Assembly (NCBI GenBank): GCA_045578445.1
Contig: JAZNKG010000011.1
Span: 46,633 to 110,632, forward strand
Origin: Alphaproteobacteria bacterium
GTDB lineage: Bacteria > Pseudomonadota > Alphaproteobacteria > RF32 > CAG-239
Length of the DNA stretch: 64,000 nucleotides
Reading direction: 5' to 3'
Made by a program: the position numbers and the translations under genes. Shown here piece after piece: positions 5,368-57,313 of the stretch. Within the stretch, counting starts at the first letter, position 1, and every line of letters begins with the position of its first letter. Below the pieces are notes generated by a model. That model searched no databases. It had not been told where the DNA came from and saw only the letters and a list, made by a program, of their open reading frames with translations.

Positions 5368-5455
5368 GGAACGTTGGCAGAGTGGTAATGCAGCGGATTG
5401 CTAATCCGTCATCCTGAATAGGGATGCATAGGTTCGAGTCCTATACGTTCCGCCA
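5368..5455 (+). tRNA. tRNA-Ser (anticodon GCU)
   Basis: GGAACGTTGGCAGAGTGGTAATGCAGCGGATTGCTAATCCG...GGTTCGAGTCCTATACGTTCCGCCA folds into an acceptor stem, D-arm, anticodon stem CGGAT/ATCCG with loop TGCTAAT, a long variable arm and a T-arm GGTTCGAGTCC, and the CCA end is encoded. Confidence 0.85.
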
Positions 5456-14793: not shown

Positions 14794-17659
<2,866 letters not shown>

Positions 17660-19841
17660 AATCTATTCCTAACTTAGATAGAATATCTTCATTTTGTGAA
17701 GTTCTTTGAGCTACAATCCAATCTGGCACCCATGCTGAATGTGGTATTTTAGACATTGCCAACATTTTTTTATCTAAATAAAAACGAGGGGCATCTGCCA
17801 TAATTGGTGTTTCAATATGACCTTGCATCAATACAACTTGTTTTAACATTGGTAAACTTAGCAAGTCATTTGACTTAATAGCTGCAACACCTGTTAATTG
17901 ATAACTTACATTCTTTGCAAATGGGTTAAATTCTTTATTTAAGCTACCCTCTTGTCTAGAATAAGATGTTGTTTGGATTGTCTTTTGACCAATCATTTTT
18001 GAGAAACGTTCTGCAGTTTGTTCGTTATTCTGTGAAAGAATAACTTTACAAGCTGTTGTAGAAATAACTGTTTCAAGGTCATCTTTACCATATTTACCAG
18101 AAATTTGACCTAAGTCTTGTCCAATTAGTAGATATGATACTTTTTGACCACGTCCCACCGCTGGTCCGTCAATTACCGCTTTAAGTTTTGGCATTTGAGG
18201 AAACTCGTCGAGCACAAACAATACTGGGAATGGCCCCATTTTACCATCTGTTGTGTTAACAAAGTTTGGTGGGTTAGAAATTAAATATGCACTCATCAAG
18301 TCAACGAACACTGCACTAATTGGGTTCAATGCTTGGGCATCTGTTTGGTTAACTGATAAGTATACTGCAATTGGTTTCCATTCGCCTGTTACAGGGTCTT
18401 TAAGACCGCGCATATCCTTAAACTTGATGTCAGAAAAACTAGTTCTTGCAACCACCGCAGAGTTTTTAAAGATACGAATACCGTTGAAAGCCATAGATAA
18501 CACAGAACCACGTTCTTTATCTGGTTTAGACCTTAGACCACTTAACTCTTGAATACAACGACGAGAATAACCATAGTCATTTGCCTCATTAATAGCTCCA
18601 TCAAGCAACTCACCCATAAGGTCAGCCATGGCTGCCATTTGGTCACCTTCTTCTTGACGGCGTTTTATCTCGTTACTTTGTTCGATTGTTGCTGTGGTAA
18701 TCCATTCTAGAATCATAGCCAAACAAGCTTCATGATTTACCCATCTATCTGGGAAAGAATTCCATGTACCAATAGGTAAGTAGTTTTCTATTGTTAAATT
18801 ATTACTTTGCAAATCTTGTAAAGCTCTAATTGCATTGTTTTGCAAATTACCACCTTGCATATCTTCATAATGACTCATAAGCTCTGCTTTATCTTCTTCC
18901 GTCATTGTTCCTTCAACAATTTTTTGAATAAAGCGCTCATTTGCTAAAGCTTTTTCGCATTTTGAAGCCACAAATTGAATAAGACCACACAAAGCTCCTC
19001 GACCTGCTTGTGACCAATATGCATCACCGCCACCTTTAGGATCTTCTACTAAAGTATTACACATTGAATCAATATACAAGTCACGTGCAGGACCTGGAGC
19101 AGGTAATGCCCCTGGAGATAATGGATTCCAGCTAGGATAATATTCACCAGTTAGTGGGTTATCCTCCTTACCCCAGTTGATTACAAAAACAGGTCCTACT
19201 TTACTTCTTGCTCCTGTTGTGGAATAACACAATTCAGGTTTAGGGTCATTTACAATAATACTCATTGTGTCTGAGTTAAAAATTGTAGGAATCACAACAC
19301 CGGCAGTTTTACCTGTACCTGGAGGAGCACAACACAGCGTTGATAATGTTTCTTTTAATTTTAACATTTTTCCTTGAAAACGCCCTACAACCATGCAAAA
19401 ACCATCAAAACCTAATAAAGGCATGCGCTCAATATCTCTTAATGTAGCAATATGTGCTGAACCATGAACATTTGATTGGAATTTATATGGACATTTTACA
19501 GCACCTGTTATTAATATTACAGGAAAAGATATAAATGGTAATAATGGCAACCATGAACTTAATTTTGTTGGAACTGATTGTGTAAAAATCCTTCTGAACC
19601 ATTTTGCATACTGATTATAAAGAGTCTCAGGATTAGAAATAGTTTTTTTGATAAAAAGACTAACTGTATCCATACTTTTTTTAGAAATACCTTGCTGTAT
19701 TAGGTATGCTAATGGATGTGCTAGATATAGCAATACGATACTAACACCTATTGAAATAAAGAAAGTCATTGTAATCCAACGTACCGCGTTGTCATACTCT
19801 TCCCATTCTTTTCCTCTTTCTTTTGCCATTTTACACCCCTA

Positions 19842-21170
19842 TTATGCCATACTTCTAAATAATTTTCTTAATTTTTCTAATGTTTCCTCGCCAACTTTAG
19901 CTTCGCAATTATCTACCACTTTAGAGAATAAACGTATTTCTTTTGGACTACCTCTATTTATACGAGTAACATTAATATTCATATCTTGCCAAATTTCAAA
20001 CATATCCTCTGCATTAATGATATTGCCAGATTGAACAATAACATGTGGAATTACATTAAATTTCATATCAGCCACAGAAAGCTTTGTTCGTAATGCATCG
20101 CAAACAATATCAATTTGTCTTACTGGAGATATTCTGTGACTACTTTCTGAGAACCATAGTGGCTCTTCATCATTGAATTTTTCTTCATCTGCCAACCAAT
20201 CTCCTATTTCTTTATCAACAAGACAAACAAGTAAGGTGTCTTTTGAAACAGCAATACAATCAACTTTAGTGCTTTTTATTATTGGAGAAGGAATAATATC
20301 ATACCCCTTTTGAGTTAGTACATCAATAACAGGGGTTTGCGATTCCCTAACAGCGGAAGTGTCTTGATTAGAATTACTGTCATTGTTGTTCTTTTCCTCT
20401 TTTTTAGGTTTATTATCTTTTCTATTGTTTCTATCATTGTTCTTATTGTGTTTTTCTTCTTTTTTAGCGTTATCAAAACGACTATCAAAATCACTAACCC
20501 CATCTTCAGGTATCAGACTTGATGGTGGTGCTGGCGGATTTTCAACAGACTTTGGCTTGTCTTTTTTATCAAAATCAAAGTCGAAATCAAAATCATCCTC
20601 ATCAAAATTAAATAAAGCATGGTTAATTGGAGCTTCTTGTTTCTTTTTATTTGGAGTATATGACGATGTTGGTCTAGGTGAGGATATAGTAGATGTTGGA
20701 GTCTGTTTAGTGTATATATTTGATTGCATTAATGTTGCTGACGGCAAAGGCTGAGGCTTAACAGCTGTTTTTTTGATAACAGGTGTATTTTTAATTACAG
20801 GAGTTTCCTCTTTTACAGCTTTTTTCTTAATAACAACTGTAGGTTTTGTTTTTAAGGTTAATTTTCTGTATAAATATAAAGGACTATAGAATAGATGTTT
20901 GAAAAATCTATTCCATTTAACCAAGCATAAGCCTATCCACCCTGCAAATAATAACGGTACACTACTTAATACAATCAAAAAGAATCCAAACTCTGATGCG
21001 GTAATAGGCTCTCCGCTATTCCATTTTTCTCCCAATAAAATCCAATGTTCTTTAAGAAAAATATCAAAGTGCCAATTGATTAGTAAAACCACCCTTAACC
21101 CATCTATGAATACTATACTCCATAGATAGCCAACTAATAAAGTTTTTAATATTATAGTTAGTGGTTTCAA
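19842..21170 (-). CDS. Membrane-anchored hypothetical protein with a low-complexity linker and a C-terminal globular domain
   Basis: The 442-aa protein has 2-3 N-terminal TM helices, then KKTAVK / VIKNTPVIK repeats, an FDFDFDFDFD run and a K/N-rich tract, then a ~150-aa domain (…VDCIAVSKDTLLVCLVDKEIGDW…). Its stop lies 12 nt from the virD4 start. Confidence 0.55.
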   Translation of the reverse strand: MKPLTIILKTLLVGYLWSIVFIDGLRVVLLINWHFDIFLKEHWILLGEKWNSGEPITASEFGFFLIVLSSVPLLFAGWIGLCLVKWNRFFKHLFYSPLYLYRKLTLKTKPTVVIKKKAVKEETPVIKNTPVIKKTAVKPQPLPSATLMQSNIYTKQTPTSTISSPRPTSSYTPNKKKQEAPINHALFNFDEDDFDFDFDFDKKDKPKSVENPPAPPSSLIPEDGVSDFDSRFDNAKKEEKHNKNNDRNNRKDNKPKKEEKNNNDSNSNQDTSAVRESQTPVIDVLTQKGYDIIPSPIIKSTKVDCIAVSKDTLLVCLVDKEIGDWLADEEKFNDEEPLWFSESSHRISPVRQIDIVCDALRTKLSVADMKFNVIPHVIVQSGNIINAEDMFEIWQDMNINVTRINRGSPKEIRLFSKVVDNCEAKVGEETLEKLRKLFRSMA

Positions 21171-21224
21171 ATTGTTCTCCGTTCTTGTTTTTTGTATTAT
21201 AGATTAAATTTAGTTAACAACTCA

Positions 21225-21713
21225 TTATTGTTTTACATTTTCTTCTATTTTTGCTGAAATTTGTTTACGAATGTCTAAAGGTGTGTTTGCAGATCCTCCA
21301 TTTTCATTGTTTCTTATTTTTTCTGAAATTATTTCATCTATAGTTTTATCTTTAACACCAATATTTTTGATAGAAACATGTTCAACCTCTAAAGTTTTAG
21401 GTTTTGTAGCCTTTCTATATACCGCAATTATTGGTAGTAATAAAAATTTTCCTAATCCAAATTTGTACAATTTTTTACTTGCTATAAACCAAACAATAGG
21501 AAAAGCGATTAAAGATACGATAAAAGTAATATCTTTAAATGTTTTGAAAGACCCACCTTTTTCCCAAAAATTGTACAATGTATTATAATCATTTTTATCT
21601 AGGATATTAAAACCCCATAAAAATTGAAAAACGAATCGCCCCACGAGAGCAAAAACACAAAAAACTAATAATCCAATTACACTGAATCTAAATAACTTAA
21701 TAATTTTTTTCAT
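21225..21713 (-). CDS. Small 2-TM membrane protein (162 aa)
   Basis: Two hydrophobic helices are followed by a basic/hydrophilic tail. The gene lies between the two larger hypothetical genes with 14- and 54-nt gaps. Confidence 0.5.
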   Translation of the reverse strand: MKKIIKLFRFSVIGLLVFCVFALVGRFVFQFLWGFNILDKNDYNTLYNFWEKGGSFKTFKDITFIVSLIAFPIVWFIASKKLYKFGLGKFLLLPIIAVYRKATKPKTLEVEHVSIKNIGVKDKTIDEIISEKIRNNENGGSANTPLDIRKQISAKIEENVKQ

Positions 21714-21727
21714 ATTTACCCCTTATT

Positions 21728-23236
21728 CTATACTCTTCCAGCCATATAGTCATATATAAATCGCGAACTATTGCAGACATTTGGTGATTGTCTAGTGGCT
21801 GTTGCAACATTACAAATTGGTCTTCCATCAAATTCAAAATTATCAACACACATTATTGCTTCTTGTAATTTTCTTCTATTTTTTTCTTTTGTTTTTATAT
21901 TGCTTCGTGCGTCTTTATCTGCATTTGATGCAATTTCTGATACAGACAATATCGCATTATTAATATGTTCGCAATAATTTTTTATACTTTCATTTCTTTT
22001 GTTTACATCTGTACCACAATTTTCGTAAATTTTATCAATATTTAGCATGATTTCATTCATATATTGTGAAGCAGTTGTAATAATTTTATATTCTTTGTAT
22101 TTACCATTCTTTTCATCATTGCTTGTATTTTCATTTATTTCTTTTATACAAGCTTTAATTGCATCTTTATCTGATTCAGAAGCTTTTTGTTTTATCATAG
22201 TCAAACTTGCTCTAATATCGTTAAATGTTTCGTCTGCAGGAAGAATATTTACAAGCTCATCTGCATATGTCTCTACATCGGCATAATTTATTCGCCCTGA
22301 AGACTTTTTCATTTCTTTCTGCAATTCCTTATATTTTTCATTAAATCCTTCAGGCATAAAGTCTACATTTTCATCTGATAGCACTTTTAGAGCTGATAAC
22401 CTATAAGAAAAACTAGCAATCATTTTGGCTTTTTTGCATAAATTTTCTACTATTTTAGGTGTTTTTTGAAAATTTTTATAGGCATTTGCCTCTGGAGCAT
22501 CTGGATTCGCTTGAAAAGCTTCATATGATGGAACAAGAACATCTGTTGTATATCTTCTTATCTCATCTAAAGCTTCAGGACAAATTGTCGCAATATTACT
22601 CCAAGATGGTGTCTCGCCTGAGCGTATTAAAAGTATGTTTCTCTCAACTTCATCTTTAGCTTTTTTAGAGTTTTTCTCTATTTCATCAACTTTTTTACAA
22701 ACATCTTTTCTCTTGTTTTCAGCCATGTCTAGATAACTTTTACCAAGCGGTGCTTTTTCACCTTGCTCTGGTTTTGAATACAATACCCAAGTCATAAAAT
22801 CTAAAGGTATATCAACCATTTTATCAATACACCATCCATAAAACTCCAATATCATACCCCAGAAAACAGCCATGATATCTTTTTCTTTGAATTCATCTTT
22901 GCCTTTTTTACTGCGTTCAGGTGGTGTAGATTCTTTTCCTTTAGGTTTTTCTACTTTTGAATGAAGCTCTGTTGGATTAACTCCGTATGCGGAGCTAATT
23001 CCTGCAGCTACATTATCTGCATCATGCTCTGGAGGAATTGGAGGAGTAGGAGGAGTAGGAGGAGTAGGCGGAGTTGGAGGCGTATTATCACCTTCTGTTT
23101 CCTGTGATGCATCATCACCACCAGAACTATTATCGCCATCTAAATTGTCAGCAGAATCATCGAGCAAGAAATTCTCTGTTTCTTGTTTAACTTCATCCTC
23201 AAATTCTTTTTTTTCATTATTTTCGTCTACGCTCAT
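21728..23236 (-). CDS. Hypothetical 502-aa protein with an acidic N-terminus and a (PTP)n repeat; no signal peptide
   Basis: The N-terminal 60 aa are D/E/S-rich, followed by TPPTPPTPPTPPTPPIPP and then a globular Cys-containing region. No recognisable motif. Confidence 0.55.
   Translation of the reverse strand: MSVDENNEKKEFEDEVKQETENFLLDDSADNLDGDNSSGGDDASQETEGDNTPPTPPTPPTPPTPPIPPEHDADNVAAGISSAYGVNPTELHSKVEKPKGKESTPPERSKKGKDEFKEKDIMAVFWGMILEFYGWCIDKMVDIPLDFMTWVLYSKPEQGEKAPLGKSYLDMAENKRKDVCKKVDEIEKNSKKAKDEVERNILLIRSGETPSWSNIATICPEALDEIRRYTTDVLVPSYEAFQANPDAPEANAYKNFQKTPKIVENLCKKAKMIASFSYRLSALKVLSDENVDFMPEGFNEKYKELQKEMKKSSGRINYADVETYADELVNILPADETFNDIRASLTMIKQKASESDKDAIKACIKEINENTSNDEKNGKYKEYKIITTASQYMNEIMLNIDKIYENCGTDVNKRNESIKNYCEHINNAILSVSEIASNADKDARSNIKTKEKNRRKLQEAIMCVDNFEFDGRPICNVATATRQSPNVCNSSRFIYDYMAGRV
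23031..23084. repeat. 9-nt tandem repeat (GGAGGAGTA x3 perfect plus flanking degenerate copies) encoding the PTPPTPP tract
   Basis: Direct reading of the plus strand gives ggaggaatt ggaggagta ggaggagta ggaggagta ggcggagtt ggaggcg. Confidence 0.8.
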
Positions 23237-23304
23237 TTTTCTTCTCCTTGTAAATTTTTTTTATCATAGCATAAAAACACAAGGTTGTCTACTTTAAAAA
23301 TAAT

Positions 23305-24306
23305 CTAAACTTTAAGTTTTTTTACATATTCTCCAATTTTTTGATTTGCTTTTATACCATCTTCTGGAGTTACTTTTATTAATCCAAAAAATTTTGGTTT
23401 TATTTTATCAAAGTCTATTGGCGCAAACATTGCTGGATTTTTTGTTAGTGCCTCAAAAGCACCTGTAGCATCATTTTGGGCGGCTCTAAAATAATTGTTT
23501 ATTAATTTATCTACATCTATAGGAAATTTCTTCTCTTTTAATTTTTTTATAAATAAAGCTTTTCGTTCTTGCAGTTCCATATATTCTTCATATAACTCTC
23601 GTTTAATACGGTTTTTTTGCATATTTTCATGCTTTTGCTTATATAAAAATTCGCAGGTTTCTACATTTATTAGTATTTCAACATACGAAATAATAGCTAA
23701 CTGCAAATCAGTATCATTCAGACTTTCTGCAAAAGTTAAATATTCCTCATCGTTTGCATCTTTTGATAATCTTTTCATATTTTCTGGATCATATCTACAA
23801 ACAATATCCCAGCAAGCTAACATATAGTTCGCTATTTTTTTGCCCACACTAGGTTTATAATTAGGAAAAAGCATTTCTTCTTTATAATCTGTTTCTGGTA
23901 CTTTGAAATTCTTTTTATCTGCCATTGTAAATATTGCATCTTGAAAATTAGATATAGCTCGAGCTAAATCTTGCTCTTCTGTTTTTAATTTCTTTTCAGA
24001 TTGTTCTTCGTTAACAGTTGTTTCTATATTTTCTTTATAAACAGTTGTTGTTAGCAAACTATCTATGCTATTTGCATCTGGTTGTGATGTTTGGGGATTT
24101 GATACGAAGCTATCTAAACTACTTAAAGATGCTTCTTCTTTAGGTGTATCATCTTGATTAATAAAACTACTTAATAAGCTAGAAAATTCATCTTCTATGT
24201 TTGAAGCTTTTGTTTCACTAGCATTTGTATCAGTAGTCTTTTTTTCGTTATTACTATTATTATCATTAGATAAAAAAGCATCTAACCCATCTAATGTATC
24301 ACTCAT
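23305..24306 (-). CDS. Hypothetical 333-aa acidic protein with a reiterated (S/D)xLDxF(L/V)S motif; no signal peptide
   Basis: The first gene of the minus-strand cluster. Its N-terminal 90 aa contain four short acidic motifs (LDGLDAFLSND, SSLLSSFINQDD, SSLDSFVSNP, SIDSLLTT). Confidence 0.5.
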   Translation of the reverse strand: MSDTLDGLDAFLSNDNNSNNEKKTTDTNASETKASNIEDEFSSLLSSFINQDDTPKEEASLSSLDSFVSNPQTSQPDANSIDSLLTTTVYKENIETTVNEEQSEKKLKTEEQDLARAISNFQDAIFTMADKKNFKVPETDYKEEMLFPNYKPSVGKKIANYMLACWDIVCRYDPENMKRLSKDANDEEYLTFAESLNDTDLQLAIISYVEILINVETCEFLYKQKHENMQKNRIKRELYEEYMELQERKALFIKKLKEKKFPIDVDKLINNYFRAAQNDATGAFEALTKNPAMFAPIDFDKIKPKFFGLIKVTPEDGIKANQKIGEYVKKLKV

Positions 24307-36219: not shown

Positions 36220-36241
36220 AAGTTTCTCCTAAAAAAATAGT

Positions 36242-36625
36242 TAGGTGGCCTATAAGCCGAGTTCTGTACTTATCATTAGCTTTACAAAAGTAAAGATTCT
36301 AAGCGATAGCTATTCATCTAGGCTAAACATCACTGTTTAACTCGAGCGACCTACCTCTGGAGTGGAGTGGAAACGCTCCATATTACGAAAAATCGTACTC
36401 CTAACTTGGTCTTGCGTCAGATAGGGTTTACCTTGCCAACAATATTACTACTGTTGCGGTGAGCTCTTACCTCGCCTTTTCAACCTTACCAAATAAATTT
36501 GGCGGTATATTTCTGTGGCACTTTCCCTTAGATTTCTCTAGCCAGACGTTATCTGGTACCTTGTTTCCACGACGCTCGGACTTTCCTCACATAAAAAATT
36601 TATGCGCAGCTATCCAGCCACCTTG
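36242..36625 (-). ncRNA. rnpB: RNase P RNA (bacterial type A)
   Basis: The minus-strand RNA contains GGAAAGUCCGAGC (the P4 region), GGUACCAGAUAACGUCUGG, GGUAAGAGCUCACC and CCUAGAUGAAU…ACAGAACUCGGCUUAUAGGCCACC. The P1 stem pairs 5' GGUGGCU with 3' AGGCCACC. The ends are approximate, within +/-5 nt. Confidence 0.8.
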
Positions 36626-52277: not shown

Positions 52278-52724
52278 ATGAATAACTTACCTGAAATAAA
52301 AGACATACATATTCCTGATGCTGTGTCAGTATTTCCTCTTGCTTATGGCTGGTGGGTTATTATTGCCTTTATAATCGCTTTATTCTTTTTGATAAAAATA
52401 GTGTTGTTTATCATCAAAACAAGTAAAAAGCATTATGCTTTAAAAGAATTAAAGTCTATAGATGTTTCAAACGGAGTTGATGCTGTTATAAATATATCTA
52501 ACTTACTAAGAAGAATTTGTATTGTAAAATACCCTGAAGCATCTTCTTTATACGGAAAGGATTGGGTGGAATTTTTAACAAAAAAAAATATACCTATATC
52601 TAAAGATGCTGCCAGTTTATTGATATATGCTCCATTTATGGATAAGAATACTAAAAAATATAAAATAAAAACTATTGAAGAGATTAAAGATTTTTGCAAA
52701 AAATGGATTGGAGACAATCTATGA
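52278..52724 (+). CDS. Small membrane protein preceding batA (DUF4381-like position)
   Basis: The 148-aa protein has one TM helix. Its end overlaps the batA start. Confidence 0.45.
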   Translation: MNNLPEIKDIHIPDAVSVFPLAYGWWVIIAFIIALFFLIKIVLFIIKTSKKHYALKELKSIDVSNGVDAVINISNLLRRICIVKYPEASSLYGKDWVEFLTKKNIPISKDAASLLIYAPFMDKNTKKYKIKTIEEIKDFCKKWIGDNL

Positions 52725-53722
52725 ATAAATTTGAATATCCTGAAATGTTTTGGCTGCTAATTCTTCCTTTCTTCTTTTATATTATATTACCTAAAGTTAA
52801 AGGATTGCATGGTGATGCGATAAGAGTGCCTTTTATTGATGATATAAAAAATATAAAAGCTTCTGTAAAAAATAAATATTACTCTACTATAGGTAAGAGT
52901 GTGTTATTTTCTATAAAATTTGTTTATCTGTTTATATTGTGGATTTTATTAGTAATCGCTTCAGCTCGTCCACAATATGTAGGCGAGCCATTTAGGCTAA
53001 AAACCGATAATAGAGATATAATGATGGTTATTGATATTTCTACATCAATGCTTCAACCTGATTTTCATTTATCTGGAAGAAGTATTGATAGATTATCAGC
53101 AGTAAAGCTTGTTGTAAGTGATTTTATTAAAAACAGAACAGAAGACCGGCTAGGCTTGATATTATTTGCAACCAGAGCTTATTTACAATCACCTTTAACA
53201 TTTGATAAGCAAGCTATTATGGATATTTTGCTTAGCGCAGATGCTGGTATGGCTGGTAATTCAACATCCATTGGCGACGCTTTAGGTTTAGCATTAAAAA
53301 ATATAAAAAATGAAAAAGATAAAAAGAATAAAGTTATTATTTTACTTACTGATGGAGAGCATAACGATGGTGCCTTATCTATGGCAGAAGCTATTGATTT
53401 AGCTCAAAAAGAAGGTATAAAAATATATACTATAGGCGTTGGTGCTGATGAAAGCTTTTTTGGTGGTTTAATAAAGTTTGCTCGTTCTGGTCTTGATGAA
53501 GCTAGTTTAAGAGAAGTTGCAGACAAGACAAAAGGAACTTATTTTAGAGCAAAGGATTTATCTAGTTTGAGAGAAGTTTATAAAAACATTAATCAACTAG
53601 AACCACAAAACAATGAAGGTAATATTATTCAAGAAAAGAAAGAGTTGTTTTATATTCCTTTAGCATTAGCTTTAATATTATCTGTATTTTTGTTGTTTAT
53701 ACCAAGGAGTTATTTGAAATGA
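52721..53722 (+). CDS. batA: vWA-domain membrane protein BatA
   Basis: Two N-terminal TMs and a vWA domain with a MIDAS motif (MMVIDISTSM…LTDGEHNDG) are present. The start is the ATG at 52721 with a GGAG RBS. Confidence 0.75.
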   Translation: MNKFEYPEMFWLLILPFFFYIILPKVKGLHGDAIRVPFIDDIKNIKASVKNKYYSTIGKSVLFSIKFVYLFILWILLVIASARPQYVGEPFRLKTDNRDIMMVIDISTSMLQPDFHLSGRSIDRLSAVKLVVSDFIKNRTEDRLGLILFATRAYLQSPLTFDKQAIMDILLSADAGMAGNSTSIGDALGLALKNIKNEKDKKNKVIILLTDGEHNDGALSMAEAIDLAQKEGIKIYTIGVGADESFFGGLIKFARSGLDEASLREVADKTKGTYFRAKDLSSLREVYKNINQLEPQNNEGNIIQEKKELFYIPLALALILSVFLLFIPRSYLK

Positions 53723-55614
53723 TAGATTTTATTGAAAATTTTCATTTTTTAAGACCTTGGATGTTATTATTTCTTTTAATACCTCTTGGTTTGTTTTTTA
53801 AGAAAATTAAGGCATCTCACATTTCATCTTGGGCTGATATTTGTGATAAGCACTTGCTTAATTTTTTAGTGATTAATGAAAACAATGTAAGGAAAATTAA
53901 CTTAAAAAAATTTATATATATTGGACTTGTTGTTGCATGTATTTCTGTGGCCGGACCTTCTTGGAAAAAGATAGAAATCCCATCTTTTTCTATAGAAAAT
54001 CCTAATATATTTATACTTAGTTTAGCGCAAGATATGCAATTGACCGATGTTCCTCCAAGCAGGCTTGAAAGAGCAAAATATATGATTTCAGATATTGCAG
54101 ATAACATATCTGTGCAAGGACAATTTGGTATTATGGTGTATTCTGAAGAGCCGTATTTAATATCGCCATTTACCGATGATATTAGTCTTATAAAGTCTTT
54201 ATTATATCAAATTGTTCCAGATATCGTTCCAGATAATGGAGATAGATTAGATAGAGCTATATTATTAGCCTTAGAACGATTTAAGGCTGCTGGTTATTCT
54301 AAAGGAAACATTATTTTGTTAGCTTCTGACGTGGGACAGCGTTTTGATTTAGCCTTACAGAATACAAAAAATGCTGTTTCTTTAGGATATGATATAAATG
54401 TTATTGATACTTCTTTTGATGGAAACGAAAAATTAAAAATGTTAGCTGATACAGGTAATGGGGTATATTTAAGAATTTTTGATACGTCTACTAAAGCTTT
54501 AGTTGAAAAAATAAAACAAATTGATACTCAAAACCTTCAAAAAAACAAAAACATGCGTTCAACTTATATTGATTTTGGATACTATTTAGTTTTTATTCCT
54601 TTGTTTTGTTTGTTATTATTTTTCAGAAAAGGTCTATTAGTTTTGTTGTTTTTCTTTGTTTCTTTTGACGTTAATGCCTCTTTCTTGTTAAACAAAAATC
54701 AAGAAGGTCTTAAGTTATTTAAACAAGAACAATATGATTTAGCTAAAGATACTTTTGATGACGAGTATTGGCAGGGTATAAGTTTATACAAACTAAACAA
54801 TTATGAAGAAGCATTAAATAAATTTAATAAAATAACCTCATCAGATGGTTTTTATAATAAAGGTGTAACTTTGGTTAAGCTTTGTAAATATAAAGAAGCA
54901 TTAGAAGCTTTTAATGAAAGTTATAAAATTGATAAAAAAAATGAGGATGCAAAATATAATATAGATGTTTTGACAAAGCTTTTTGAAGATGCAAAAGAAA
55001 AGCCAGAACTTCTTAACTGTCAAAATAATCAACAACAACAGCAAAATCAAAATGATAATAACGATAAAAATAATAATGAAAAAAATCAAAATAATGATGA
55101 AAATAACGGTAATGGGAAAAATAATAACGAAAACAACCAAAATAATGACAAGAATAGCAGTAATGAAAAAAATAATTCAGAAAATAAAGACAAGAATCAG
55201 CAACAAGACAAAAATGATAAACAGAATGATAACAATGAAAACACATCAGATAATAGTGAAAACAAACAAAAAGATAGTAATAAAAATCAAGATGACCAAC
55301 AGCAAAATCAAAATGACAATAGCGAAAACAATGGCGATGATAAACAAAGTAAAACTGACGAAAATAGAGAATCTTCAAATAAAAAAGATTCAGATGCTTC
55401 AACAAAAAATAAAAACTCAGATTTAGATAAAGAAGATAAACAAAAGGCAAAATCTTTGCTAGCTAAAGAGGGTGATGAAAACGAAAAATATGACGAAGAA
55501 GCTATGGCTATGCAACGATTGTATAGAGAAATCCCTGAAGATGTTGGTGGTTTATTGCGAGAATTTATAAAAAAAGAATACATGAAAGATAGGTATAATA
55601 ATGAAAATATGTAA
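53719..55614 (+). CDS. batB: BatB-like vWA plus TPR protein with an N/Q/D/K-rich low-complexity tail
   Basis: An N-terminal TM, a vWA-like region, a second TM, TPR repeats and a ~140-aa N/Q/D/K-rich region are present. The gene overlaps the batA stop by 4 nt. Confidence 0.65.
   Translation: MIDFIENFHFLRPWMLLFLLIPLGLFFKKIKASHISSWADICDKHLLNFLVINENNVRKINLKKFIYIGLVVACISVAGPSWKKIEIPSFSIENPNIFILSLAQDMQLTDVPPSRLERAKYMISDIADNISVQGQFGIMVYSEEPYLISPFTDDISLIKSLLYQIVPDIVPDNGDRLDRAILLALERFKAAGYSKGNIILLASDVGQRFDLALQNTKNAVSLGYDINVIDTSFDGNEKLKMLADTGNGVYLRIFDTSTKALVEKIKQIDTQNLQKNKNMRSTYIDFGYYLVFIPLFCLLLFFRKGLLVLLFFFVSFDVNASFLLNKNQEGLKLFKQEQYDLAKDTFDDEYWQGISLYKLNNYEEALNKFNKITSSDGFYNKGVTLVKLCKYKEALEAFNESYKIDKKNEDAKYNIDVLTKLFEDAKEKPELLNCQNNQQQQQNQNDNNDKNNNEKNQNNDENNGNGKNNNENNQNNDKNSSNEKNNSENKDKNQQQDKNDKQNDNNENTSDNSENKQKDSNKNQDDQQQNQNDNSENNGDDKQSKTDENRESSNKKDSDASTKNKNSDLDKEDKQKAKSLLAKEGDENEKYDEEAMAMQRLYREIPEDVGGLLREFIKKEYMKDRYNNENM
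55020..55450 (+). repeat. Low-complexity AT-rich coding repeat (AAT/GAT/AAA/CAA codon runs)
   Basis: The tract encodes QNNQQQQQNQNDNNDKNNNEKNQNNDENNGNGKNNNENNQNNDK…. Both strands yield spurious long ORFs here. Confidence 0.8.
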
Positions 55615-57313
55615 ATTTATTCTAACTTTAGTTTTTGTACTATTTTCTTTTAGTGCTCACTGTGATCAGCTAAATCTTAGTGTTGATAAAGATGTTTTAA
55701 TTAGTGGAGAGCCCTTTTATTTAACTATAAGCTATGATGGAAATAGTAATAGTAATCCTAACTTAGACCCTTTAAAAAAAGATTTTCAGATAATTTCTAA
55801 TTCTGTTTCTCGTTCTGTAAATATTATTAATGGTAATATGTCTCAAACAAAACAATGGAGAATCGGTTTAATTCCACTAAAAGAAGGAAAAATCAAAATT
55901 TCTCCGTTAAAATTAGACAATCTAACATCTAATTATATCGATATTGATGTAAAAGAAACTACAGATGTTGCCTATATTGATGATAGCAAACACAATTCAA
56001 ATGCTCCTTTTTTACAAGTGAAACAAATCTCTGATACAAAAGAGCCTTATATACAGCAACAAGTAACTTTTTTAGTTACATTATACGATAGTATTGGATT
56101 AAGAATTAATAACATTACTGTAAGTAAAGAATCTTCAAATAACTGGTCTATTGTTCCTGTTTTGGAGACACCAATTGTTGATAAAGATGTTATAAATGGT
56201 AAAAAAGTAAACGTTATTCATTATGCTTTTGCAGGATTTCCTCAAAAAAGTGGAAAAATAGAAGAGCCAAGATTTATAATTGACGGCTATTATTTAAAAA
56301 ACAATGAGTTTTCTTTTCCTGTGTTTGATGATGATTTTGATGTTTTTGGATTTAATAATGTTTTTAACCAACAAGTCCCTGTAAAAATGCAGACAAAAGA
56401 AAGTTTTGTTACTGTTAAGTCAATTCCAGATGATTATAAAGGAAGATATTGGCTTCCTCTTTCAAACTTAACAATATCTTCAGAACTTAAAAACATAGAT
56501 AATATAAAACAAGGTGACGCATTTAATCAGATAATAACGATTACAGCATCAGGGTTACAAGAAACAATGTTCCCTCAAATAAAATTTAACACCATTGATG
56601 GAGTTAAAAGTTATCCAGAAAAACCTCAATTATCTACAAGAATATCAAAAGGATTGGTTGAAACAACGGCTGTATTTAATAATGTTTATATACCAAACAA
56701 AACAGGGGAAATAATTATTCCTTCTGTTGAAATAGATTGGTTTAATATAAATACACAAAAAATAGAAAAAAGTTCAACTCAACCAGAAAAGATTATGGTT
56801 GAAGTTAATCCTAATATTATTTCTCAGCCTATTAAAATCGAACCCGTTATAGAAAAAGAATCCTCAGCAGAAATAAAAGAAAATAAAAATGAAGATATTA
56901 ATACGCTTAATGTAAAAGAAAAAGCTTATAAAGATTATTTGTACTATGTTTTTTATGTTTTATTGTTTGTTTTGTTTGTGCTTATATATAACAAAGTTAG
57001 CTCTAAAAACCTACATAAAAAGCAGGTTATAAAAGCAATAAAACAACATGACTATAGAAAAGCAAGAGAAGCTCTTTTAGAATGGGCTATGTCTAAATTT
57101 AATAACAACTCTATAAAAAATATTAATGATGTTTCTAAACTGGTAAATGATGAAGAATTTTCAAGACAATTATCAAATTTGAATAAAATGATTTATTCAG
57201 AAACAGAAGATGCTTTTGATTATATAAAATTTATTGAAATTTTTAAAAATATTGATAAAATTAAGTATAGAAGAGATAAAAGTAAAAAACCTATACCTCT
57301 TTTATATGATTAA
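55601..57313 (+). CDS. batD: BatD-like protein
   Basis: The 570-aa protein has a signal peptide and a C-terminal TM (YYVFYVLLFVLFVLIY), and the gene is positioned directly after batB. Confidence 0.6.
   Translation: MKICKFILTLVFVLFSFSAHCDQLNLSVDKDVLISGEPFYLTISYDGNSNSNPNLDPLKKDFQIISNSVSRSVNIINGNMSQTKQWRIGLIPLKEGKIKISPLKLDNLTSNYIDIDVKETTDVAYIDDSKHNSNAPFLQVKQISDTKEPYIQQQVTFLVTLYDSIGLRINNITVSKESSNNWSIVPVLETPIVDKDVINGKKVNVIHYAFAGFPQKSGKIEEPRFIIDGYYLKNNEFSFPVFDDDFDVFGFNNVFNQQVPVKMQTKESFVTVKSIPDDYKGRYWLPLSNLTISSELKNIDNIKQGDAFNQIITITASGLQETMFPQIKFNTIDGVKSYPEKPQLSTRISKGLVETTAVFNNVYIPNKTGEIIIPSVEIDWFNINTQKIEKSSTQPEKIMVEVNPNIISQPIKIEPVIEKESSAEIKENKNEDINTLNVKEKAYKDYLYYVFYVLLFVLFVLIYNKVSSKNLHKKQVIKAIKQHDYRKAREALLEWAMSKFNNNSIKNINDVSKLVNDEEFSRQLSNLNKMIYSETEDAFDYIKFIEIFKNIDKIKYRRDKSKKPIPLLYD

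Follow-up and report, generated by a model that had tools for sequence, protein, structure and literature searches.

A membrane-tethered NERD-like protein paired with a chromosomal VirD4 coupling protein in gut and rumen Alphaproteobacteria

INTRODUCTION

Coupling proteins decide which substrates are exported by type IV secretion systems (T4SSs), and to our knowledge few of their accessory subunits have been described outside Legionella and Helicobacter. What a further partner of this kind could do is a question raised by a 64,000-nucleotide (nt) stretch of DNA (hereafter the window; contig JAZNKG010000011.1 of assembly GCA_045578445.1, positions 46,633 to 110,632) from an alphaproteobacterium of the RF32 lineage, in which a 442-amino acid (aa) protein is encoded directly upstream of virD4. 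An initial annotation, made by a model from the letters of the window, described a membrane-anchored repeat protein whose C-terminal domain loosely resembles NERD and restriction-endonuclease-like proteins, and suggested a role in DNA or substrate processing if that resemblance were confirmed. Is the nuclease-like appearance borne out, and what would such a domain contribute next to a coupling protein? In our literature search, no paper connected NERD with T4SS coupling proteins or dealt with T4SSs in this gut lineage.

We describe here a large unannotated NERD-derived sub-family, distinguished by a signature of its own, by a membrane module with a paralogue and by conserved chromosomal pairing with VirD4. 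The family comprises about 1000 proteins, none of them annotated, and its conserved domain signature is missed by the Pfam NERD model. The predicted nuclease-type fold is located at the membrane and is tightly linked to virD4 in widespread uncultured gut and rumen Alphaproteobacteria.

RESULTS AND DISCUSSION

The NERD-like gene and virD4 are conserved as a pair

The open reading frame (ORF) of 442 codons is a real gene, as initially proposed, and lies far beyond what a chance ORF would present. It is read from a TTG start on the minus strand (Table 1), the start site is consistent with those of its homologues, and a search of 5.8 billion proteins returned 998 homologues at E ≤ 1e-3. Full-length proteins with 51–99% identity make up the best 120, and those with names are all ‘hypothetical protein’ from metagenome-assembled genomes of Alphaproteobacteria. 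A scan of GTDB species genomes placed relatives in at least 134 species-level genomes; the 80 loci retained from it all come from uncultured gut or rumen Alphaproteobacteria, under varying record labels (Azospirillum, Acetobacter, Rickettsiales, Rhodospirillales) that presumably fit an RF32-type gut lineage. In addition, 317 relatives at E ≤ 1e-3 emerged when 1.84 billion representatives were searched exhaustively with a profile. For comparison of gene order and conservation we used 83 related loci, with one contig counted twice.

The neighbor 12 nt away is confirmed by Pfam as a VirD4/TraG-type coupling protein (T4SS-DNA_transf, 4e-54; TraG-D_C, 1e-22; TrwB_AAD_bind, 4e-17). VirD4-type models of NCBIfam match it as well, all with scores under their equivalog cutoffs, and we therefore consider it a divergent member. 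The virD4 gene follows the NERD-like gene directly and in the same orientation in all 83 loci, at an operon-like stop-to-start distance of -4 to 30 nt (median 16), which is in the range of translational coupling. The pairing extends to three relatives with only 24–28% identity (P0160, P0172 and P0175), each of which is encoded directly upstream of a VirD4 of about 730 aa that is 50–54% identical to that of the window, with gaps of 95, 23 and 73 nt. The surroundings of these three pairs are lolA upstream with rpmI-rplT-pheST downstream, a ribbon-helix-helix gene, and genes for a peroxiredoxin and a dehydrogenase. Because no other gene of the window’s operon is kept in these distant contexts, it is the pair itself that is the conserved unit. 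The NERD-like gene and the chromosomal virD4 thus form a tight two-gene unit. The expectation of the initial annotation that the gene would stay next to virD4 in relatives holds for the 83 loci and the three distant contexts, and fails for the most divergent branches, which are unlinked (see below).

VirD4 is chromosomal and vertically inherited in this clade, with 63–94% identity among its members, a level of conservation intermediate between those of RluD and RpoH. On plasmids, its closest relatives (33% identity) are found inside a classical virB4...virB8-virB9-virB10-virB11-virD4 cluster. Therefore, it appears that a P-type VirD4 has here been separated from the virB genes and given new neighbors. 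The C-terminal domain of the paired protein is comparably well kept: its median identity across the 83 loci is 73% versus 68% for RluD in the closer sub-clade and 57% versus 59% in the farther one, while the linker preceding it reaches 43% and 27%. These rates point to strong purifying selection on the NERD-type fold, with the domain evolving about as fast as the housekeeping protein RluD.

A restriction-endonuclease-like fold below the detection of Pfam

Comparison of the window protein with Pfam, NCBIfam, PADLOC and PDB sequences gave nothing meaningful, and NCBIfam has no model for the family of its C-terminal domain. Profiles of the family matched PDB sequences only through transmembrane (TM) noise or by chance, so that no solved structure related by sequence was found. 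When relatives were scanned singly, NERD (PF08378) was the sole recurrent Pfam match, present in 16 of 28 close members (best 3.4e-5) and in 22 of 56 diverse members (best 2.9e-5), mostly below threshold. Two relatives pass the curated gathering score of 22.1 bits, P0069 with 24.8 bits (60% identical to the window protein) and P0280 with 30.0 bits, and both of their alignments span positions 13–111 of the 111 in the hidden Markov model (HMM).

Structure prediction points in the same direction. We built a full-length AlphaFold2 (AF2) model from an input of 49 sequences, comprising two clades only ~18% identical to each other, and a second model of the C-terminal domain. The former contains a compact domain at residues 278–442 with a predicted local distance difference test score (pLDDT) of 88–94; the latter has a pLDDT of 77.7 and a predicted template modeling score (pTM) of 0.76. 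In both, the elements run in the order helix, four strands, helix, strands (alpha-beta-beta-beta...alpha-beta), which is that of a restriction-endonuclease-like alpha/beta core. Foldseek searches of the PDB with the two models retrieved almost exclusively PD-(D/E)xK (restriction-endonuclease-like) folds, including AF1548 (probability 0.98–0.99), the RLE domain of the R2 retrotransposon, RPA0323, EndoMS, Nt.BspD6I, Hjc, Card1/Cdn1, Bax1 and RecU. The assignment of a restriction-endonuclease-like, NERD-type fold is thus well supported by the models and by the matches of the relatives. The C-terminal domain would consist of a NERD-like PD-(D/E)xK-fold core (residues ~279–380) followed by a conserved extension (GNIINAEDM..W..V.V.R..G.P and a C-terminal helix), and by sequence and model the family represents a divergent, so far unannotated branch of NERD / PD-(D/E)xK. 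The resemblance first noted by eye accordingly largely stands at the level of the fold, through NERD matches in relatives and through AF2 and Foldseek, and does not extend to a NERD match in the window protein.

Two conserved aspartates, no catalytic lysine and a new signature

If the fold is that of a nuclease, are the catalytic positions kept? The peptides on which the initial annotation relied are present, with VDCIAVSKDTLLVCLVDKEIGDW beginning at residue 303 and HVIVQSGNII at 376, and we counted residue conservation over 82 membrane-type representatives. D304, at the position of the ‘PD’ aspartate, is Asp in 64 of 77 TM-type representatives (83%) and is invariant across the two clades that are only ~18% identical. 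D319, at the (D/E) position, is Asp or Glu in 73 of 80 (91%). Of the three positions that classically bind metal or act in catalysis, two are therefore kept. The third differs, since the triplet reads D319-K320-E321 and has Glu where Lys is expected. Across representatives this position is variable (E in 41, Q in 7, D in 7, T in 7 and V in 5), as is the K320 column. A canonical D...(D/E)xK catalytic triad, suggested at first, is not supported by the sequences; of that pattern only the two acidic residues are conserved. The structure prediction proposed as a check had a similarly divided outcome, with PD-(D/E)xK folds retrieved by both AF2 models and no conserved Lys in the triad.

The best-conserved positions fall outside the canonical triad. 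W339, S348, P349 and N386 are invariant, while W325, A327, E329, P337, E342, D389 and W394 are near-invariant (≥90% for the first five). Most of these residues belong to a family signature, GDWLADEEKFNDEEPLWFSESSHRISPVR in the window protein, with the pattern GDWLADEE.FN.E.PLWFSE..HR.SPV and, further on, INAEDM...W. In the better of the two AF2 models, the full-length one, it forms three short strands at 323–328, 338–341 and 345–347 and the start of the next helix.

Soluble proteins of 500–1400 aa also have the same signature and core N-terminally, followed by one to three AAA + AAA_lid_6 modules of the SpoVK/CbbX type (P0228, P0233, P0236, P0245, P0247, P0249, P0262, P0269 and locus L086, with Bacteroidaceae among the hosts). 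Pfam provides no annotation of the N-terminal signature domain in these AAA+-fused proteins. A search started from P0233 was dominated by its AAA module, and the genomic context of P0233 was uninformative.

Membrane module, linker and relation to other NERD proteins

The initial annotation counted two to three TM helices. By hydropathy there are two TM-grade segments, at residues ~3–32 and ~55–86, and no third. The AF2 model has helices at 2–33, 40–52 and 58–106 (pLDDT 84–90), which together describe an N-terminal module made of TM1, an acidic outer loop, and TM2 running on into a basic juxtamembrane helix. The outer loop (residues 32–60) is conserved and acidic, with the pattern NWHFDIF..HW..KWNSG in which W33, F35 and G53 are near-invariant family-wide. 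The loop between the TM segments contains two Lys or Arg and five Asp or Glu residues, and residues 87–135 after TM2 contain 13 and two; with this charge distribution, the positive-inside rule puts the C-terminal domain in the cytoplasm. From the charge counts and the AF2 model, the C-terminal domain is thus predicted to be cytoplasmic and tethered to the inner membrane, in agreement with the membrane tethering first suggested.

The module has a paralogue in the operon itself. The 162-aa protein encoded upstream of the NERD-like gene aligns with the membrane module over 105 columns in hhalign (probability 99.0%, E = 5.3e-18), in comparison with a probability of 0.2% for a control with the C-terminal domain, and lacks the NERD-like domain.

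Between membrane module and domain, AF2 predicts disorder without secondary structure at residues 110–275 (pLDDT 40–49), a stretch composed of 15% Lys, 11% Pro and 11% Asn. The repeats reported initially are found here, VIKNTPVIK at residue 125 and KKTAVK at 133, while the supposed FDFDFDFDFD run has only four units (FDFDFDFD, residues 194–201). This run ends an acidic and aromatic motif, HALFNFDEDDFDFDFDFD, with the pattern HALFNF-DEDDFD-x-DFDF, in which H184–F189 and D193–F198 are invariant among close relatives. Variants of the motif occur in 80 of 84 clade members, and AF2 does not order it. It is a candidate short linear docking motif. As a general marker of VirD4 linkage the FDFDFD motif was rejected, since it is not evident in the VirD4-linked relatives with 24–28% identity.

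How does this architecture compare with known NERD proteins? Like NERD (PF08378), the family conserves an Asp before strand 2 and an acidic residue ending strand 3, and its predicted core matches restriction-endonuclease-like folds. Unlike NERD, the window protein falls under Pfam detection, the (D/E)xK motif is missing its Lys, and the family has a hallmark of its own (WLADEE.FN.E.PLWFSE..HR.SPV ... INAEDM..W), a conserved extension of ~60 aa past the core, and a two-TM module with its own paralogue and a tight virD4 pairing. Membrane attachment as such is common, as many bacterial NERD proteins have a TM segment (PMC12702573).

Two characterized proteins are instructive. SmdA of Staphylococcus aureus has an N-terminal membrane anchor and a cytoplasmic domain only partly similar to NERD; several of the residues best conserved in NERD are missing from it, its own conserved residues matter functionally, and nuclease activity has not been shown for it, so that it represents a degenerate membrane-anchored NERD domain with an essential role of a non-nuclease type (PMC9040797). 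The window protein shares the membrane anchor and the cytoplasmic partial-NERD domain, a likeness of architecture and not one drawn from sequence comparison. In contrast, SmdA has one TM helix, is monocistronic, belongs to Firmicutes, acts at the division septum and has no link to a coupling protein. TbLrRP2 of Trypanosoma brucei is a membrane-anchored NERD subunit of a membrane-bound complex, and its charged NERD residues are required for rRNA processing (PMC12702573). It resembles the window protein in being a membrane-anchored NERD protein, and differs in being eukaryotic, in its location at the endoplasmic reticulum or nuclear envelope, in its RNA substrate, in keeping the charged residues and in having no ATPase partner.

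Proposed role as a VirD4 partner

The reading that we favor, and advance tentatively, is that of a dedicated VirD4 partner whose C-terminal domain binds a substrate and passes it on to the ATPase. The NERD-like protein would stand next to the VirD4 hexamer on the cytoplasmic side of the membrane, with its two-TM anchor in the inner membrane and the domain hanging in the cytoplasm from a flexible linker of ~170 residues. There it could bind, and possibly nick or trim, nucleic acid or a different substrate held via a bound metal, which would then be handed to VirD4 by analogy with the membrane-associated relaxases that act beside coupling proteins. The 162-aa protein, a paralogue of this membrane anchor, probably docks at that position in the membrane too. 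A partnership with VirD4 is favored by the conserved gene pair and by the selection on the domain, and a link to ring ATPases by the fusion of the same domain to AAA+ proteins. We base binding and nicking on the retention of D304, D319 and the near-invariant acidic loop (E329, E342), and the handling of nucleic acid on the requirement for the NERD residues of TbLrRP2 in processing together with the precedent of relaxases and coupling proteins. A DNA-processing role of the domain, as first suggested, may thus be inferred from conserved residues and the predicted fold.

Membrane-associated relaxases can be encoded beside their coupling protein, as are TraI and TraD of the gonococcal genetic island, and the MOBC relaxases MobC/TraX have a restriction-endonuclease-like (PD-(D/E)xK-like) catalytic domain, not an HUH domain. 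The likeness to the window pair, a DNA-cutting fold at the membrane whose gene adjoins that of a type IV coupling protein (T4CP), is one of gene logic. Such relaxases come from oriT-bearing plasmids or genomic islands, whereas the window pair is inherited vertically as part of the chromosomal core, with a domain absent from plasmid and phage collections and without the catalytic Lys. Could the protein nevertheless be part of a mobile element, such as a MOBC-type relaxase of an integrated conjugative or mobilizable element, or else a defense or toxin nuclease? The PD-(D/E)xK-like fold adjoining a coupling-protein gene and the relationship of MOBC relaxases to restriction endonucleases would fit. 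We nonetheless regard this origin as highly improbable and rejected it on synteny, absence from plasmids and phages and the lack of a PADLOC match. The housekeeping flanks rpoH, rluD and ligA are the same across the clade, the base composition of the locus is like the rest of the window, and tblastn with the C-terminal domain gave no match in 72,556 plasmids and 50,697 phages. No integrase is present in the 64-kb window either, and the protein is predicted to be an integral membrane protein. Instead of the plasmid, integrative and conjugative element or mobilizable element with oriT that defines MOBC systems, we find chromosomal synteny. No relaxase family matched in the scans against Pfam and NCBIfam, with no search made with a MobC/TraX sequence or model.

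Several results weigh against our proposal. With regard to fold, the window protein has no Pfam NERD match at E ≤ 1, and the E-values of the Foldseek matches are weak, with none below 1e-3. With regard to catalysis, there is no conserved Lys of (D/E)xK across the representatives, the most conserved loop is strongly acidic, unlike a direct DNA-binding surface, and the AAA+-fused relatives do not conserve the D304 column while keeping the signature. With regard to transfer functions, no virB-type genes were found among the large ORFs of the window, which also contains no relaxase or oriT. Finally, some family members are not linked to virD4. In two genomes, members of a clade with ~17% identity immediately precede accB-accC (L084, 5110-6318; L085, 10001-11305), one further member adjoins fabA, tandem members of 359 and 521 aa in L092 (7001-9881) have no VirD4 nearby, and L091 (3894-13768) keeps synteny like that of rpoH, rluD and the 333-aa gene of the window operon, with two membrane-module genes and no VirD4 within 5.5 kb.

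The main alternative is that the protein is a VirD4 partner and no enzyme, namely a degenerate NERD fold that anchors or regulates the coupling ATPase or serves as its adaptor, possibly one whose acidic loop mimics the substrate or plugs the ATPase. We consider this possible and rather doubtful. The variable column in place of the catalytic Lys and the position of the invariant W339, S348, P349 and N386 outside the classical triad are consistent with it. Because the AAA+ fusions do not conserve the D304 column and keep the signature, the role of the signature may be independent of catalysis, and its occurrence in these fusions would fit a module that binds ring ATPases. The chromosomal housekeeping context without DNA-transfer genes in the window is also in its favor, as is SmdA, a membrane-anchored NERD-like protein without several canonical residues that has a role in cell division (PMC9040797). 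Against an adaptor, D304 and D319 are kept in 83–91% of representatives and across clades 18% identical, and dead nuclease folds usually lose such acidic residues. The role would then compare with that of T4CP partners encoded by an adjacent gene, which include DotM with DotL in Legionella and CagZ with Cag-beta in Helicobacter; DotM is membrane-anchored, and DotM and CagZ associate with the cytoplasmic part of the coupling ATPase. The window protein is likewise the product of a gene adjoining a T4CP gene, with partnership suggested here by gene order. Its fold is unrelated to theirs. The generic Pfam and NCBIfam scans returned no DotM or CagZ family, nor any family besides NERD that recurs in the window family.

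The unlinked members raise a different possibility, that of a general membrane-associated housekeeping factor which connects the membrane to the nucleoid, to RNA or to the division machinery and whose adjacency to virD4 reflects operon history. The members at accB-accC or in other VirD4-free housekeeping contexts and the kept synteny of L091 argue for such a factor, and membrane-anchored NERD proteins with non-secretion roles are known in SmdA (PMC9040797) and TbLrRP2 (PMC12702573). It is unlikely in our view, as the spacing of the pair is held within -4 to 30 nt in every one of the 83 loci, and its recurrence in three unrelated neighborhoods without other operon genes would be hard to explain without selection on the pair.

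Some of the unlinked loci have further features. In L084, a TraT-family gene is found just upstream of the family member. In L091, the place of VirD4 downstream is taken by unknown genes of 345, 493 and 928 aa. In the 521-aa member of L092, the signature is canonical and the C-terminus is extended by a long K/E-rich tail. A 1513-aa gene of L092 was considered as the domain-bearing P0177 and rejected, since the sequences differ and the motif is absent.

Returning to a role in substrate handling beside VirD4, the consequences differ with activity. If active, the domain would offer a relaxase-independent preparation of nucleic acid for the VirD4 motor in a chromosomal, non-mobile setting; if inactive, it would show plainly how a nuclease fold can be turned into an adaptor for an ATPase. 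In either case, the function of VirD4 in these organisms becomes approachable through the signature loop, the two Asp residues and the linker motif FDFDFD of its neighbor. A more far-reaching idea, improbable as it stands, is that the ‘WLADEE’ domain is a NERD-derived module specialized for ring ATPases, as its AAA+ fusions and VirD4 pairing might suggest, and part of a new coupling complex around a virB-uncoupled chromosomal VirD4 that processes and exports or imports nucleic acid without an HUH relaxase. Such a complex would also include the 162-aa paralogue and other lineage-specific operon genes.

Operon and chromosomal neighborhood

Six genes on one strand, the pair among them, form a conserved block flanked by rluD and ligA. 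They encode proteins of 333, 502 and 162 aa, the 442-aa NERD-like protein, VirD4 and a polytopic membrane protein of 262 aa. In tblastn searches with window proteins, the number of the 83 loci matched was 83 for the NERD-like protein and VirD4, 76 for the 162-aa protein, 73 for the 333-aa protein, 73 for RluD and 68 for RpoH. The four unknown genes of the block (333, 502, 162 and 262 aa) have no match in Pfam, NCBIfam or PADLOC, and the 333-, 502- and 262-aa proteins could be further VirD4-associated components or substrates. A promoter and terminator scan of the operon gave the same counts as shuffled sequences.

Table 1. Coordinates of the features in the window
Feature	Position	Strand	Basis and remarks
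Whole gene, membrane-tethered NERD-like protein	19842..21170	-	ORF list; 442 aa + stop, TTG start
GGAG Shine-Dalgarno	21177..21180	-	Read from sequence; 6 nt 5' of TTG
N-terminal membrane module, residues 1–106	20853..21170	-	AF2 helices, hydropathy, charge counts
Disordered K/P/T/N-rich linker, residues 107–277	20340..20852	-	pLDDT 40–49; fast-evolving
Acidic/aromatic linker motif, residues 184–201	20568..20621	-	Conservation in close relatives
Cytoplasmic C-terminal domain (predicted), residues 278–442	19845..20339	-	AF2, Foldseek, Pfam NERD in relatives
D304, ‘PD’ aspartate position, start of strand beta-2	20259..20261	-	Conservation
D319-K320-E321, (D/E)xK position, end of strand beta-3	20208..20216	-	Lys replaced by Glu
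Family signature, residues 323–351	20118..20204	-	Conservation, AF2
virD4, VirD4/TraG-type coupling protein, 739 aa	17610..19829	-	Pfam and NCBIfam; ATG at 19829, 12 nt downstream of the 442-aa gene
162-aa gene, paralogue of membrane module without NERD-like domain	21225..21713	-	hhalign; 76 of 83 loci
Same-strand six-gene block between rluD and ligA	16871..24306	-	Synteny in relatives
tRNA-Ser(GCT)	5368-5455	+	
RNase P RNA	36237-36625	-	
Bat-type operon (VWA, VWA+TPR, BatD-domain), then tsaE, mlaE/mlaF, radA, cvpA	52694-57313	+	

The window is ordinary chromosome, with ligA, rluD, rpoH, infC and genes for an RND efflux outer-membrane factor and glycogen phosphorylase. It also contains lpxC, bamD, tgt, a recN-like gene, the RNase P RNA, the Bat operon, mlaEF, radA and tyrS.

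Within the block, the 333- and 502-aa proteins have long acidic disordered N-termini, with a run of PTPPTPPTPPTPP in the latter. If the ORF of the 262-aa protein is read from the first ATG, it shares 50 nt with the 3' end of virD4 (17610-17659); at its own 3' end, it has 14 nt in common with the convergent ligA (16871-16884). Because the overlap with virD4 is shorter in relatives, the true start of this gene may be further downstream.

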